The notes below the pieces were generated by a model that was not told the origin of the DNA, made no database searches, and saw only the letters and a list, made by a program, of their open reading frames with translations. From sequence record PQ850593.1: DNA of 64,000 nucleotides; one strand, written 5' to 3'. Source of the stretch: Escherichia phage AidaStucki_Bas93. The position numbers and the translations under genes were made by a program. Shown here piece after piece: positions 30,310 through 54,708 of this stretch; the stretch's first letter is position 1, and each line of letters begins with the position of its first letter.

Positions 30310-30803
30310 TTAGTGTGTATGCATCCAATTTAACCCAATCTGACAATCAGAAGCCAGAGGACATTCCATGTTCAAGTACTCACCAGCCTTCTTAACACAA
30401 AGCTCGGTGTACTCTTTGAGTTTCTGTACATCATTACGGTTCACTGAGAACTGGCCCTCATCGTGCATATCAATTACCTTAGCACAACGAACTCCATCTT
30501 TCTCAATCCACTTGTTAAGGAACATCATAGCATATTTCATAACAACAGCACCAGCACATTGCAGGAGTGTGTTAAGGGCTTTATGAACCATAACCTTACC
30601 AGTGGCATCCCGTCTCATTGTAATCTTACGACCATCAACGCCAATCAAATACCCTTGAGCAGCTTTCTCTGTCATACGATCAATGAGGATTGCAATACAT
30701 GGGTTCTCTGCCAAGAAGCGTGCTCGCATCACTGAACCTTCGTCAGCTCCACCACCTACGATTGAACCAAGTTTAGCATCACCAGCACCATAGTTAAACG
30801 CAT
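30310..30803 (-). CDS. DNA polymerase (family A, T7-like), 3' exon; 5' boundary is approximate
   Basis: Translates to ...NYGAGDAKLGSIVGG...GVDGRKITMR...ALNTLLQCAG...MHDEGQF...NWMHTH, in line with the T7 gp5 C-terminus; the frame is open upstream of the track start to a TGA at 30805-30807. Confidence 0.6.
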
Positions 30804-31509
30804 CTCATATATTCGACAAGAGCCGCAACACTCTCGCCCGTTCTCTTATGAACTGCTACATGTCGCCATGTAGGATAGACTATATCATCACCCTCTATCG
30901 AGGGGTTGGGCGCTTCCACCGGCATTAGCTTCCGGCGTACTCCTTTCGGATAGTCGTTGCACCTTCAAGTATTCTATAGCTGTTTCTAATCGGCTAACAT
31001 CATCTTTCAATAGCCCTAAAGCTCTGTTGCAGTTGTGACACAACAGACCGCGTATTACTCCGGATTCATGGCAATGATCAACCACAAGTTTAATTCTGTG
31101 ATGTGTTGCCATTACAAACCCTTCGCCCTTACAGATAGCACACTTCCCATCCTGATCAGCGTACATCTTTTCGTAATCGCTGGCTGTGATTCCATAAATT
31201 CGTTTGAAGTAGGAATTTCTCCAGCCCCTATCTTTGCATTCATCAGAGCAATAATGTTCAGATGGTGCATTTGGTTGAAAATCTTTTGAGCAATTACGAC
31301 AAGGTTTTGGATTGAACCGACCTTGAGGGTATTTACTTGCCTCAGCAGTCTGTTCTTCTTTAGTTTTAGTTACAGTTGTATATTCCATAAGCACCTCCAT
31401 GTTGAGTTGCTATAGAATACTTGCTTGGCTCAGGATTGTCTACTAGAGAGTTTCCCTGAGTTCACCCAATTTAATCGACGAGATTACTCTCGAAGTATCC
31501 ATTTACGTC
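30804..31509 (-). mobile_element. putative group I intron in the DNA polymerase gene, carrying an HNH homing endonuclease ORF
   Basis: About 700 nt interrupt the polymerase frame inside motif B (KTFI | YAFNYGAG); upstream exon ends in U, insertion begins with in-frame UGA, candidate guide GGAUA can pair with exon UAUCU, last base is G. Confidence 0.5.
30888..31400 (-). CDS. intron-encoded HNH homing endonuclease
   Basis: HNH core DGKCAICKGEGFVMATHHRIKLVVDHCHESGVIRGLLCHNCNRALG. Confidence 0.7.
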   Translation of the reverse strand: MEVLMEYTTVTKTKEEQTAEASKYPQGRFNPKPCRNCSKDFQPNAPSEHYCSDECKDRGWRNSYFKRIYGITASDYEKMYADQDGKCAICKGEGFVMATHHRIKLVVDHCHESGVIRGLLCHNCNRALGLLKDDVSRLETAIEYLKVQRLSERSTPEANAGGSAQPLDRG

Positions 31510-32860
31510 AGATAAACGTTTTAGCGTTGTCACGAGTAGGAAGACCAGCAAGTTTCTGGTTGTGGGAGTGGATATCACCTTCAAGAAGGATATCACGATA
31601 CATAATAGCAGAAGCTAAACCACGTTCTGCCAGAGCTTTCTTAGCTGGATTATTCTCTTCGATTGCTTCAGCAAGCATATCCCTACACTCTTTAATGAGG
31701 TAGTGAGCGAGCATACGAAGTTCAAGTCCAGAACCATCATACCCTAAGAATACTTCTTTACCAGCGGGTATGTAATATTTGTAAGCACCTACAGGCTTAT
31801 CTTTCTTCCCCGGCTTACCTTTCTCGTAAATTACGTTAGTACCTTTTCGTATATAACAACCATCAGGAACAACGTTAGTAATAACGAAAGGACGAGAGTG
31901 ATCACTGTCTGAATTATAGTCAGACTCAAACAAACTGCGACACTCATGACCAAACAAACCACGAGAGGGAATATTAACCACGATACGATGTTTGAATCGA
32001 AAAGTTGGCGTAGCGCAGCTGTTAGCTTCTGCCGAAAGTTTACCATCTTCGCGTTCCTTTGCTATGAGTCCACTGATAAGACCTAGCCTGTGAGCCGCTA
32101 CAACGCGCCTCTTAAGCAAACTTCCAACACTCCCTAGCTCGCCCCCTAACCCTTCTTCAAGAGTCTCCTCGAGGTTTGTAGGAGCTGTAGGCCACTTGTT
32201 TGAGGTAGCTAGTGCTATCTTAATCTCATCAAACGTGATAGGTCTACGTCGGTTAGGGTTTAAACCTAAACCAAACACATAAGCCTTCATATAGTTCTTA
32301 GTCTTAAACCTAAAATGCTTCTCTAAGAACCTCCTAATATCTGCGTCAACCATCTCGGCTGTCTGCTTCTGTTTAGCATTACCTCGCATCCAAGCTGAAT
32401 ACCACGCTTGGTATGTTCCATACTTTCGTATATCTTTCTTGATTTCAAAAGTATTCCAAGGTTTCTTTGATACGTTAAACTCTGGAGGAAGAAAACCCTC
32501 ATCCATAAGGGCTTCTTTAACTCGTGCATCTTTCGATGGGTCAAAGTCCACGTATTCAACACAGGTGAATGCTCCACCAATGTCTTCTCTCTTAAGGCCA
32601 ACTCTATCACAATAGGCTTGAGGCCACTTCTGTAAAGCTCCAGACTTCTTAAATGGCTTCATATAAGTAGAGCCATCTAATCTCATCTTAGGTAAGAGAG
32701 GGATCAGTTCTTTGTCGATATTAACAATAATCTCTTTAAGGAGGTGAACATACCACCGAGCATTTCTTCGGTTGAAACTCACTCCGTGCTTCGCTTGCTT
32801 AGAGATTATATCAGCGACAGTCATCTCTGTCAAAAATGGGAGAGCGTCCGGGTTGCTCAC
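31510..32860 (-). CDS. DNA polymerase (family A, T7-like), 5' exon with motif A
   Basis: Motif A LGYDGSGLELRMLAHY and pre-motif-B LEGDIHSHNQKLAGLPTRDNAKTFI; ends at TGA immediately after KTFI. Confidence 0.75.
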
Positions 32861-36538: not shown

Positions 36539-36814
36539 TTATTTATTGCTCAGTGCTGTGTCCAAAAATGCTTTCAGGTTTGCTTCAGTCTGCATACCAG
36601 AGAGGCTGTAATGTGCGCCACTATTCCGGTCAGGCACAACGAAAGCAGGAATGCTTCGTACACCATACTTAACAGCTTGTTCACGACCGTCACCCTCAAG
36701 GATATTAATCTCTTCCACTTCTACATCGAACTCCTTAACAACCTTCTCAAAGATAGGAGCCATTGCTTTACATGGAGCACACTGATCACTATAAAACTTA
36801 ATTACTTTAGACAT
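36539..36814 (-). CDS. thioredoxin-like protein
   Basis: CxxC active site in context FYSDQCAPCKAMAPIF and downstream IPAFVV (cis-Pro region). Confidence 0.7.
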   Translation of the reverse strand: MSKVIKFYSDQCAPCKAMAPIFEKVVKEFDVEVEEINILEGDGREQAVKYGVRSIPAFVVPDRNSGAHYSLSGMQTEANLKAFLDTALSNK

Positions 36815-37023: not shown

Positions 37024-37062
37024 GAAAACCCCGTCTATTCCTAGACAGGGCTTGAGTTTTTT
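37024..37062. terminator. hairpin terminator (possibly bidirectional)
   Basis: Stem CCCCGTCTA / TAGACAGGG with one mismatch; A-run on the 5' side, TTTTTT six nt after the 3' side. Confidence 0.4.
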
Positions 37063-37946: not shown

Positions 37947-38228
37947 AACTCTCTCCTGTAAAATACAAACTCTTATTGTACTCTATATACATTTGAGAGT
38001 TACCATATCTACTACCAATCAGTAGTGAACTTTTCCGCTAATATAAACACGACCAGAGGAATACTCTTTGGCCTTATGGATACTGATACTCTTAGTTAAA
38101 TCTGTATTGAACATAGACTTTTTAAAATCTCGAGCCTGTTGACGAGTAGGAAGTGCAGTCATGGTCATACCACCTGATGCCCACTTAATCTTTGCTAACC
38201 AAAACTGTCTCATAATGATTGGCCTCAT

Positions 38229-38762
38229 TTACACACCTTTAGATGCAACTACACCTTCAGAGTTATTATAACGACCCTTCACTGCATAGGAATGCTCCCC
38301 TGCATGAGAGTGCTCAAACATGACCATCTGACCAACACGCATACCAGCACGAACTCGTAAGCTGTGGTGCTTTGTTACGTTATGAAATTCAAATGTCAGC
38401 TTACTGCTATTAAATCCAGCGTCTGCCCACCCAGCGTGGAGGTGGTTCAAACCACAACGAGCCATAGATGAACGCAGGACAAACAGGCTTGAAATGTTAT
38501 CTGGAAGGTTAAACTCCTCCATAGAGTGAGCCAAGAAGAACTGACCCGGAGTGATAACCAAACCCTCTTCAGGAATTTTTACTTCCTTCCACTGAAGATT
38601 CTCTTTCGCATCAATATCAACGATGCCATCAGCCTGTTCTTCAACAAGGATAGTATCACCAATACGGATATCCACACTAGCAGCGTTAACATACTTATGC
38701 TCCGCATCCAGATAGCCATTGTCAATTACATCATGCAGTTCAATACTTCCTAGTAAACTCAT
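38229..38762 (-). CDS. dcd: dCTP deaminase
   Basis: RSSMARCGL, GWADAGF...EFHN and C-terminal KGRYNNSEGVVASK parallel the Dcd signatures. Confidence 0.8.
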   Translation of the reverse strand: MSLLGSIELHDVIDNGYLDAEHKYVNAASVDIRIGDTILVEEQADGIVDIDAKENLQWKEVKIPEEGLVITPGQFFLAHSMEEFNLPDNISSLFVLRSSMARCGLNHLHAGWADAGFNSSKLTFEFHNVTKHHSLRVRAGMRVGQMVMFEHSHAGEHSYAVKGRYNNSEGVVASKGV

Positions 38763-38771
38763 TCTTATTCC

Positions 38772-40019
38772 TTAGTTGTTTGTTTCTATGTCAAAAGAGA
38801 ATCCACGACCCGCTTCATCGGCAAACCGAGCTGTATGGGTTTGAGGCTCTAATACTTCAGGGTTGTTAGCAATAAAGCGAGCGGCGAGATTATCTTCCAC
38901 ATCTTGACTAGAGGGCTGACGTGCGCTAACAGTTAAACCATTTGGTCGACCATTAGAACGTCTAGACAACCACTGCTCAAATGAATCACTAGTAACACCA
39001 AGAGCCTCTTCAAAAGATGTTCTACGAGTAGGGCTTACTCTTCGTGACTCTTGTGCTCGACGCATTGCAGGGGCTACAAACACCCCTTCAATTGCATTAT
39101 GTCGATTAGGTTCATCTTCCCGACCAAGGAGATCACCTCCTGCATTAGTTGTTAAGTTTGTCAACCCTTCAGACCAATACGCACGAATCTGGCTAGAGCC
39201 ATAAATGCTTGACATTAACTGAATCTCTTCATAAGGTATATCAAAGAATCGACTCATATCTCGGTTAACACAATACTGAGCACTTGTTGTATCCTCAATA
39301 AGAGCAACCTGACCCCGTTCGTTGACCAGATGACTAACCGGCTGAGGTGTGGGAAGGTGTCGAGTTTGGGCCATGTATTGATATGCAGCTGCTGGAGAGG
39401 AAAATCTCAACACTTGCGAGTTAGGCCACTTCTTGTGAACATACCTGATTTCACGACTAGAAACAACCACTGGACAAGGGGCGGTCATAGCCAAGTATCC
39501 ATGAGGGGTCATGAATAAGTTATCAAGAGTCATCGCACCACGGCACATCATAGGAAAATTATCCAATACCTCTTCAATAGAAGTAGGATAATTAAACATG
39601 AATTGGATACGAACACCATTCCACTGAAACTCAATAATATCAGTGAATGTTAATTGAGAACCCCCAGCATATGATTCGTTCGTAGCTTCAACAAGAAGAG
39701 ATGAATACTCAATATCTTGTGATTCAAGCCATTCCTTCACATTACTTTCAATCTCCCGTCCAAGCATTTGCCACTGCTCGGCTGGGATAAAGGTATTTCG
39801 AGTTCTTGGTGTTTGTCCTCTGACAATAAAGATATCAATGTCATGTGGAGCTATGTTATTAAGAACAGCATCACGAATAGCTCCACCAGTAATGATAGGG
39901 CAAATACCATCTGGAATCAAGTTGTTGTTAATCAACTGTTCAATGAAGTGACGACCAACAGTGATATCAGGTTGTTGAGCAACCTTATCTTCAATTCGGT
40001 TAATCGGGATAACAATCAT
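38772..40019 (-). CDS. nucleotidyltransferase-superfamily protein (CCA-adding / poly(A) polymerase-like head motif)
   Basis: ITGGAIRDAVLNNIAPHDIDIFIV fits the GG.(V/I)RD...D.D signature; ATG at 40019 sits 2 nt after the exonuclease stop. Confidence 0.45.
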   Translation of the reverse strand: MIVIPINRIEDKVAQQPDITVGRHFIEQLINNNLIPDGICPIITGGAIRDAVLNNIAPHDIDIFIVRGQTPRTRNTFIPAEQWQMLGREIESNVKEWLESQDIEYSSLLVEATNESYAGGSQLTFTDIIEFQWNGVRIQFMFNYPTSIEEVLDNFPMMCRGAMTLDNLFMTPHGYLAMTAPCPVVVSSREIRYVHKKWPNSQVLRFSSPAAAYQYMAQTRHLPTPQPVSHLVNERGQVALIEDTTSAQYCVNRDMSRFFDIPYEEIQLMSSIYGSSQIRAYWSEGLTNLTTNAGGDLLGREDEPNRHNAIEGVFVAPAMRRAQESRRVSPTRRTSFEEALGVTSDSFEQWLSRRSNGRPNGLTVSARQPSSQDVEDNLAARFIANNPEVLEPQTHTARFADEAGRGFSFDIETNN

Positions 40020-40020
40020 T

Positions 40021-54604: not shown

Positions 54605-54708
54605 AAGAGCTTCTAGCGAGGATGACAGGGTTCGAACCTGCATACTCCAATTACTTCTTTAACGACCGCTTAGAAGGCGGGGAAGATACATCCTCGCTAG
54701 AAGCTCTT
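54605..54708. repeat. 20-bp perfect inverted repeat enclosing a 64-bp structured core
   Basis: AAGAGCTTCTAGCGAGGATG (54605-54624) is the exact reverse complement of 54689-54708; the core holds two short hairpins including the palindromic GGTTCGAACC. Confidence 0.6.

Follow-up and report, generated by a model that had tools for sequence, protein, structure and literature searches.

A class II-like nucleotidyltransferase head among the replication genes of Escherichia phage AidaStucki_Bas93 and its remote relation to phrog_1614 proteins and the anti-Gabija protein Gad2

Escherichia phage AidaStucki_Bas93 (PQ850593.1), a phiEco32-like podophage (Kuravirus, Gordonclarkvirinae), encodes a putative nucleotidyltransferase (NTase) of 415 amino acids, which we analysed within a stretch of 64,000 nucleotides of this sequence (hereafter the window). 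Tentatively, we favour the explanation that the NTase is catalytically active and needs no template, that it belongs to a Gad2/phrog_1614-like group confined to phages and derived from the head domain of class II enzymes (CCA-adding enzymes and poly(A) polymerases) without their tRNA and C/A specificity elements, and that its role lies in counter-defence or in protecting genome ends. What the data show are the fold, conservation of the metal-binding DxD motif, purifying selection, strict synteny and a remote homology to phrog_1614 and Gad2; the nearest relative characterised by function is Gad2 of SPbeta-like phages, which cancels Gabija immunity. An initial annotation of the gene had proposed a CCA-type enzyme that could repair tRNA 3' ends or tail RNAs; its observation is confirmed and its fold assignment is right, but the repair function is unlikely, and the relation to Gad2 and phrog_1614 points to different biology.

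The gene and the parts of its product are located as follows.

38772 to 40019, minus strand: NTase gene, 415 amino acids plus stop (open reading frame and translation; PHROG 12715)
39375 to 40019, minus strand: conserved catalytic core, residues 1-215, made up of a class II-like NTase head and the single helix that follows
38775 to 39374, minus strand: linker (residues 216-272) and predicted disordered tail (residues 273-415), lineage-specific, the tail indel-rich
39828 to 39887, minus strand: motif A, G45 G46 A I R49 D50 ... H59 D60 I D62 I F64, with two metal-binding carboxylates
39591 to 39641, minus strand: beta-hairpin, residues 127-143 (D127 ... V-R-I-Q139-F-M-F-N), Q139 being at the third-carboxylate position of relatives
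39552 to 39557, minus strand: F155-P156, motif B remnant (RRD-F in class II, F-D in Gad2 and phrog_1614; hhalign columns)
39423 to 39473, minus strand: helix motif P183 ... R189-E-I-R192-Y193-V-H-K196-K197-W-P199, with Y193 and K197 invariant in alignment A5 (described below)

The open reading frame (ORF) begins at ATG 40019 and ends with a TAA at 38772-38774. We prefer this start to a longer in-frame alternative, GTG 40076, because every orthologue begins with MIVIP at the ATG (MI.IP across all sequences, distant homologues included). Orthologues include phiEco32 gp73 (YP_001671818; 80.5% amino acid identity), Bas92_0055 (94.5%) and SU10 CDS74; at the DNA level, positions 38000-41000 of the window share 98% identity with Escherichia phages Bas92, Bas94 and LAMP, and about 92-94% with many kuraviruses of 75-78 kb, and in a PHROG profile search the protein matches phrog_12715 with E 1e-227. 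Given 97 NTase-encoding phage records, a dN/dS of 0.10 in the core, residues 1-215, against 0.35-0.44 in linker and tail (0.10 and 0.35-0.37 in the comparison with phiEco32) and a peptide of the SU10 orthologue detected by mass spectrometry (PMC4281155), the ORF is a genuine gene, far beyond chance. Two opposite-strand ORFs within it (39330-39518 and 39768-40070) are without support. The label 'nucleotidyltransferase' is already public for phiEco32 gp73 and Bas92_0055, and our literature searches found no biochemical study of any family member; new relative to the available literature are the likely kinship with Gad2, the altered active site and the core-gene status. As a separate observation, the gene appears in two pieces in the kuravirus records OR757435 (XT32) and MG976803 (myPSH2311), the product called in XT32 (P0043) beginning at residue 94, without motif A; this is a sequencing error or a natural disruption, and the latter would bear on essentiality.

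A hidden Markov model (HMM) search of 1.84 billion representative proteins returned 34 matches at E <=0.001, about 29 of them genuine relatives (clusters), with no bridge to canonical CCA or poly(A) polymerase (PAP) families among the 34; word-index homologue searches with the window protein returned kuravirus proteins only. The family includes long forms (367-482 amino acids) from Kuravirus- and Suseptimavirus-like phages and short forms (274-321 amino acids) from metagenomic phage contigs, which have in common only their first ~215 residues. AlphaFold2 modelled residues 1-250 confidently with a diverse alignment (predicted local distance difference test, pLDDT, 87.1; predicted template modelling score, pTM, 0.85), and the full-length protein with a pLDDT of 53.8, residues 273-415 falling below 50. 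Based on this low pLDDT and on the limits of the shared region, the C-terminal ~200 residues are probably a lineage-specific, indel-rich, disordered extension. The initial annotation had called the 415-residue length consistent with a CCA enzyme; only ~215 residues are conserved and folded, the remainder is predicted to be disordered, and the tail is absent from the members of 274-320 amino acids and missing from half of the family, so that the match in length to CCA enzymes is a coincidence due to the predicted disordered tail.

The tail varies by indels, and the length of the protein ranges from 392 to 456 amino acids, the window copy being a short variant that lacks a 'GFAVGDINAPVRAVWTDEG' block found in orthologues of 437-456 amino acids. 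Of the extension, kuraviruses conserve only the last ~20 residues (RFADEAGRGFSFDIETNN), and at its end lies a conserved peptide of mildly acidic character (FADEAGRGFSFDIETNN). Three HMM matches, P0073, P0074 and P0076, are proteins of 1512-4243 amino acids with 4-10 repeats matching profile residues ~37-128, and giant-virus proteins (Pithovirus, Bodo saltans virus and Hokovirus; BFVD) have a comparable head domain joined to ankyrin or BTB repeats.

The window protein contains the core of the Pol-beta-like NTase superfamily (alpha-beta-alpha-beta, with hG[GS] and [DE]h[DE]h motifs). The structures closest to its model are the T. maritima CCA-adding enzyme 3h37 and E. coli poly(A) polymerase I 3aql (structural score 11.1 each), the human CCA enzyme 1ou5 (10.7), the B. 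stearothermophilus CCA enzyme 1miv (10.2) and 4wby (10.2), a poly A polymerase / tRNA-processing enzyme that we take to be the Aquifex A-adding enzyme; these class II alignments span 156-167 residues. TENT5 (8.7) comes next, followed by TUTases, CD-NTases, Pol X and MenT1 (6-8), and Foldseek with a weaker NTase model ranked the families in the same way. Motif A, to which the initial annotation had drawn attention, is present (GGAIRD at residues 45-50, HDIDIF at 59-64) and corresponds to the class II motif GGxVRD...DxD over 20 hhalign columns (probability 91%, E 1e-6). Its residues G45, G46, R49, D50, D60, D62 and F64 are invariant both in an alignment of 25 family sequences (A5, members 20-34% identical to the window protein) and in a further alignment, A6. 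Since the closest structures are class II and motif A is similar, the assignment to a class II-like, Pol-beta-like head is right at the level of the fold.

Class II CCA enzymes are defined by motif A, the RRD of motif B, the EDxxR of motif D, a third carboxylate and helical neck, body and tail domains; RRD acts as ribose sensor, EDxxR as protein template for C and A, and neck, body and tail grip the tRNA. Beyond motif A, hhalign against E. coli Cca, PcnB and a five-sequence class II alignment found no similarity, searches of PDB sequences with the protein and two profiles matched only a motif-A stretch of ~22-27 amino acids (among them a profile match to the Planococcus CCA enzyme confined to 27 motif-A residues, E 0.006), and a forced global alignment with class II sequences was meaningless. 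Pfam PolyA_pol (PF01743) scores 16.6 bits on the window protein, below its gathering score of 23, and gives sub-threshold matches in 17 of the 25 members (best E 0.0012), all printed bit scores being under 23; NCBIfam assigns no family to the NTase. The region beyond motif A was mapped through two intermediate families, phrog_1614 and Gad2. In this transitive hhalign mapping the RRD of motif B is not present, the equivalent position reading x-F155-P156, and ED..R was not found in the core; helical neck, body and tail domains for tRNA binding are missing from the AlphaFold2 models.

These results bear on the proposal that the NTase is a tRNA CCA-adding or repair enzyme, which would rebuild the 3' CCA of host or phage tRNAs after attack by defence nucleases, or complete a phage tRNA whose gene does not encode CCA. 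In favour of this, the nearest solved folds are CCA-adding enzymes, a motif A of the form GGAVRD..DxD is typical of class II, some homologue records are labelled 'class II CCA-adding enzyme-like', and RtcB RNA ligase and a Macro domain are encoded ~3 kb downstream in distant relatives. The window also contains a tRNA-like element without encoded CCA:

54606 to 54707 (core 54617 to 54695), minus strand: tRNA-Arg(UCU)-like element (Rfam RF00005, 29.7 bits against a gathering score of 29, borderline)

The initial annotation had seen no tRNA gene in the window; ARAGORN likewise found none there, and the statement needs qualifying only for this borderline Rfam element. Its anticodon loop reads CTTCTAA (Arg UCU) and its T-arm is good; the D-arm has only 4 nucleotides (nt), the variable region 20 nt, and the extended acceptor helix 19 bp (including a perfect 12-bp extension). 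It occupies the slot of the canonical tRNA-Arg(TCT) of Bas92, to which its sequence is unrelated; the variant is common to Bas94, 1-6af, 1-6bf and FH3, and in most kuraviruses homology ends at its edge. Despite these points, we consider a CCA-adding or repair enzyme unlikely: neither RRD nor ED..R was found, no helical body or tail is available for the tRNA elbow, family members of ~280 amino acids and phrog_1614 members of 180-200 amino acids are too small to contain one, and PF01743 stays below cut-off in all members. Moreover, the tRNA-Arg of Bas92 carries its own encoded CCA, the sister family occurs in Autographiviridae (ARAGORN detected no tRNA over the first 25 kb of LKD16), and toxicity of members expressed alone is unexpected for a repair enzyme.

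The first of the two intermediate families, phrog_1614, matches residues 35-216 of the window protein (PHROG profile, E 7.5e-8) and is matched by 25 of 25 family members (best E 3.5e-11). Compared by hhalign, with LKD16 ORF16 and seven relatives as the phrog_1614 profile, the window family and phrog_1614 align over 163 columns (probability 90.5%, E 1.3e-6), and phrog_1614 aligns with class II at a probability of 97% (E 4e-11). As the best PHROG of the window protein is 12715, the profile searches argue for phrog_1614 being a sister family and not the same family. The gene order is helicase, NTase, ligase in phiKMV-like Autographiviridae, lysozyme, NTase, primase/helicase in gh-1-like phages and ligase, NTase, DNA polymerase in phi80-18; phrog_1614 thus adjoins helicase, ligase or primase, with no dCTP (deoxycytidine triphosphate) deaminase there. 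A structure search of viral proteins returned many podophage NTase-like proteins of 165-230 amino acids. fHe-Kpn01 Gp22 is toxic on expression (PMC7291057), as is Emajogi gp22, a protein with homologues that bear a Gad2-family annotation, and both proteins are probably phrog_1614 members as well.

Gad2, the second intermediate, is a 400-amino-acid anti-Gabija protein of Bacillus phages SPbetaL6 and SPbetaL7 with a predicted NTase domain; it is toxic when expressed, knockout of gad2 renders SPbetaL7 Gabija-sensitive, and a Brevibacillus homologue blocks Gabija (10.1101/2023.05.01.538930). Gabija has been described as sensing DNA ends and RecBCD inhibition (PMC12904381). An N-terminal-domain profile of Gad2 (WIT28108.1; OQ921347.1, 109563-110765) and seven homologues aligned with A6 over 163 columns in hhalign (probability 77.5%, E 1.9e-5), and a precomputed Pfam PF26128 (Gad2) label, marked weak, is attached to 30 of 45 close kuravirus homologues. 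Gad2 in turn matches phrog_4400 (8e-27), which is matched by 6 of the 25 window-family members, and phrog_1614 (8e-6). A Gad2 match recorded for Escherichia phage 19-1-2 turned out to be a Vequintavirinae fragment and not a kuravirus sequence.

The motifs of the Gad2 family are hGG, DxD-h-[YF]F, hQh[IM], FDF and PIxSxLRxxKYxxKGY, and it has in common with the NTase GG, DxDIF, IQxM and P183..R189..R192-Y193..K196. The shared motifs, D.D-I-[FY]F, h-Q-h-[IM], F-[DP] and P..R..[KR]Y..K in general form, have matching spacing: F155 lies 16 residues after Q139 in the NTase, and F105 lies 17 residues after the corresponding Gln in Gad2. The P183 helix of the NTase resembles 'PIVSLLRVQKYTDKEY' of Gad2 in a gapless by-eye alignment, from which the hhalign register differs by one residue.

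Fourteen positions are invariant in A5, namely M1, G45, G46, R49, D50, D60, D62, F64, Y117, I128, Q139, P156, Y193 and K197. The initial annotation had singled out the catalytic carboxylates as a point on which it could fail; the two of the DxD are kept, and the third is Gln139 according to a remote, transitive alignment. The hhalign columns place Q139 on a strand that reads 'DVD' in phrog_1614 and has the conserved form 'hQhI' in Gad2, and from strand order, not structural superposition, we infer that its strand corresponds to the class II strand 'EVTTFR', where the residue is Glu. Because phrog_1614 has Asp and class II Glu, Gln would by the same strand order be a derived character common to the NTase and Gad2; a Streptococcus phage homologue of Gad2 has Glu at this position. 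Residue 127, on the paired strand, is D or E in 25 of 25 sequences and may substitute for the third carboxylate. By both routes F155-P156 falls on the F-D of 'FD[YF]T', the counterpart of class II RRD-F; P156 is nearly invariant in A6 also, and residue 155 is F or M. A first guess that R189..Y193 represents motif D 'EDxxR' was not upheld as such, and the two transitive hhalign mappings disagree: the phrog_1614 route takes this helix to the motif C region, and along the Gad2 route helix 188-197 corresponds only to the LRAxRF stretch of the motif-D helix in class II, the ED..R residues having no counterpart.

Under the favoured explanation, catalysis would be retained despite Gln at the third-carboxylate position, for which we point to the invariance of GG..RD..DxD over deep divergence (sequences only 23-34% identical to the window protein), and the loss of RRD would relax discrimination between nucleoside triphosphates (NTPs) and deoxynucleoside triphosphates (dNTPs). 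The opposite possibility, a protein with impaired catalysis that binds nucleotides or serves the replisome as a scaffold, tethered by the disordered tail, would accommodate both Gln139 in place of the third carboxylate and Pro156 in place of the Asp of motif B, and the conservation of the extreme C-terminal peptide among kuraviruses and the apparent translational coupling to the polymerase exonuclease subunit (see below) fit it too. We hold it to be very unlikely, as that same invariance speaks for catalysis, Gad2 has the same Gln yet functions against Gabija (its NTase activity being predicted only), and the tail is missing in half of the family.

The genes on either side of the NTase gene are the following.

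40021 to 40575, minus strand: upstream gene for the DNA polymerase 3'-5' exonuclease subunit (Pfam DNA_pol_A_exo1, E 2.8e-9)
38229 to 38762, minus strand: downstream gene for dCTP deaminase (Pfam DCD, E 3.6e-34)

The upstream gene encodes a subunit of a split family-A DNA polymerase, and its adjacency to the 415-codon ORF, noted in the initial annotation, is borne out. Because its stop codon is separated from the NTase ATG by a single base (…TGG AAA ATG TAA A ATG ATT…), the sequence suggests that translation of the NTase is coupled to that of the exonuclease subunit; in relatives this junction ranges from a 4-nt overlap to a 21-nt gap. The order primase/helicase, polymerase exonuclease subunit, NTase, dCTP deaminase is constant in every context examined (phiEco32, Bas92, Bas89, ECBP2 and metagenomic contigs), including a contig with an 86%-identical NTase and contigs with NTases that share no more than 25-28% identity with the window protein (A5). 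Promoter and terminator scans around the NTase gene gave nothing above shuffled expectation, no convincing terminator was found between the exonuclease, NTase and dCTP deaminase genes, and the first convincing one on the NTase strand lies at 37026-37053. Neighbouring genes encode dCTP deaminase, ThyX and thioredoxin, and in relatives also NrdD/G.

Several features of this region stand on their own. The primase/helicase (40569-42359, minus strand) has an acidic tail with a terminal aromatic residue that recalls the polymerase-binding tails of T7 gp4 and gp2.5, and the phage-encoded thioredoxin is at 36539-36814. The family-A DNA polymerase gene (30313-32860, minus strand) is interrupted relative to that of Bas92, residues 1-450 mapping to 32860-31511 and residues 452-614 to 30801-30313 in a different frame. 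The interruption of ~0.7 kb contains a 170-amino-acid Endonuclease VII ORF (30888-31400; PF02945, E 1.5e-23), a homing-endonuclease-type insertion, and Rfam called no group I intron at this site; counting the separate exonuclease subunit, the polymerase is in three pieces. In the distant metagenomic relatives L008 (12001-16796) and L010 (8413-10166), genes for RtcB RNA ligase, a Macro-domain protein and NrdD/NrdG (anaerobic ribonucleotide reductase) follow ThyX in the same module, and the equivalent place in the window holds only a small ORF annotated 'DNA ligase'. Upstream of the replication genes, a conserved block at 42579-46835 (minus strand), continuing to ~51958, encodes GGACT (gamma-glutamyl cyclotransferase-like), a 'RimK/ATP-grasp-like' protein (without a Pfam match in the window), glutamine amidotransferase, amidoligase and COOH-NH2 ligase. 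Even contigs with an NTase of only ~25% identity retain GGACT and the amidotransferase. This block could be a peptide or amino-acid ligation pathway.

The invariant adjacency of dCTP deaminase suits an alternative in which the NTase would take part with it in covalent DNA modification or an unusual-nucleotide pathway, as Humolli et al. suggested for Gordonclarkvirinae (PMC11990801), and which would explain their restriction resistance: no modification pathway is known in these phages, yet they withstand the restriction-modification systems tested (PMC11990801), the amidotransferase, ATP-grasp and GGACT genes are conserved nearby, and loss of RRD might permit dNTP substrates. Yet dCTP deaminase, ThyX and thioredoxin form an ordinary dTTP (deoxythymidine triphosphate) supply set, the phrog_1614 genes sit beside helicase, ligase or primase without dCTP deaminase, and modified bases in these phages are not directly evidenced. 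We know of no DNA-modification pathway with a class II-type head, and regard this alternative as quite improbable.

According to the explanation we favour, the NTase would be made alongside the replication proteins, its translation apparently coupled to the exonuclease subunit, and would move a (deoxy)nucleoside monophosphate from an NTP or dNTP to a nucleic-acid 3' end or another host-accessible acceptor. This transfer would serve counter-defence or genome-end protection, a biological role like that of Gad2. Also in its favour are the toxicity of other group members and, as context, the finding that Gordonclarkvirinae resisted the restriction-modification systems tested and were almost insensitive to the other defences tested (PMC11990801). 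Overlapping with the favoured explanation, the acceptor being unspecified in both, is a general RNA 3'-tailing enzyme (poly(A)-polymerase-like or MenT-like) that would tail host mRNA, tRNA or rRNA and so hasten their decay and supply the nucleotide pool, or shut off the host. An abundant cellular substrate would fit the toxicity of the relatives, the adjoining genes serve nucleotide salvage and dNTP synthesis, and the Arg-rich disordered tail could bind RNA. The motif that recognises the ribose 2'-OH, RRD, is absent, however, and nothing ties the NTase gene to RNA-decay genes. In addition, the window family matched none of the PADLOC models for defence-type NTases (CD-NTase, AbiEii/MenT, MNT), the phrog_1614 member LKD16 ORF16 reaching E 0.012 only. 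We judge general RNA tailing to be rather unlikely.

A number of observations weigh against counter-defence by a Gad2-like NTase. Anti-defence genes are usually accessory and mobile, whereas the NTase is a fixed core gene of the whole subfamily within a replication and nucleotide-metabolism operon, a status that a housekeeping role in replication fits as well or better. The link to Gad2 is remote, to judge from weak Pfam matches and an hhalign probability of 77%; Gad2 has GGAITS where the NTase has GGAxRD, as do class II and phrog_1614, and a tblastn search of the window with Gad2 gave no match and revealed no second Gad2-like gene. With Gln139, and with Pro156 where motif B has Asp, the chemistry could be reduced or altered. 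To say that the NTase works like Gad2 also specifies little, because the mechanism of Gad2 is itself listed as unknown in a 2026 review (PMC12904381). Our literature searches found no report on the Gabija sensitivity of kuraviruses, and the BASEL paper makes no mention of Gabija.

Because fixed core-gene status argues against a purely anti-defence role, we also considered one that would serve both replication and evasion: a terminal (deoxy)nucleotidyltransferase, coupled to the replisome, which would add tails or caps to 3' ends, either those of the linear genome with its terminal redundancy or those of replication intermediates. Such tailing would hide the ends from DNA-end-sensing immunity, namely Gabija and possibly RecBCD-linked or Shedu/Lamassu-type systems. 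We give this more specific proposal only a small chance of being correct. If it were true, the same chemistry would explain how Gad2 defeats Gabija, why two unrelated lineages of podophages have head-only, class II-like NTases fixed beside genes for helicase, primase, ligase or polymerase, and how the loss of RRD and the Glu-to-Gln change are tolerated.

Gad2 is one of few anti-defence proteins predicted to be enzymatic, and our analysis suggests that a fixed core gene of all phiEco32-like coliphages and the widespread NTases of T7- and phiKMV-like phages belong with it to one broad group of stripped-down class II nucleotidyltransferases. As BASEL Kuravirus isolates plate on K-12, the gene can be studied in a genetically tractable E. 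coli model, and the group supplies natural active-site variants, with E, D or Q as third ligand and RRD, FD or FP in motif B, for working out what these enzymes modify. Should the gene help to evade defences, this would bear on the insensitivity to immunity of Gordonclarkvirinae, which are phage-therapy candidates; if the NTase is only a housekeeping accessory, the result amounts to a routine refinement of annotation.

Compared with class II enzymes and PAP I (PF01743; 1miv, 3h37, 1ou5, 3aql, 4wby), the NTase has, by the remote alignment above, Gln in place of the third carboxylate. The minimal NTase toxins MenT and AbiEii and the stand-alone head-domain protein 2la3 are without sequence relation to it, and their structural scores are below those of class II. 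The phrog_1614 proteins (phiKMV/LKD16 ORF16, TbilisiM32 gp16, the gh-1-like gp beside the primase/helicase and Yersinia phi80-18 g27) are, like the window NTase, head-only and class II-like, have a motif A of the form GGxARD..DxD and are encoded amid replication genes, often overlapping them. Unlike it, they measure 180-255 amino acids without a long tail, keep Asp ('DVD') on the third-carboxylate strand and F-D in motif B, where the window NTase has Gln and F-P, and are clearly linked to class II (hhalign 97%), a link that the window family lacks. Gad2 keeps the Asp of the F-D motif where the NTase has Pro, its residues 200-400 do not align with the predicted disordered tail, and it is encoded in a variable anti-defence locus, whereas the NTase is a fixed core gene of a replication operon. 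Gad2 and the NTase nevertheless resemble each other in having an N-terminal NTase domain of ~200 amino acids with hGG..DxD, a total length of ~400 amino acids and a distribution restricted to phages.

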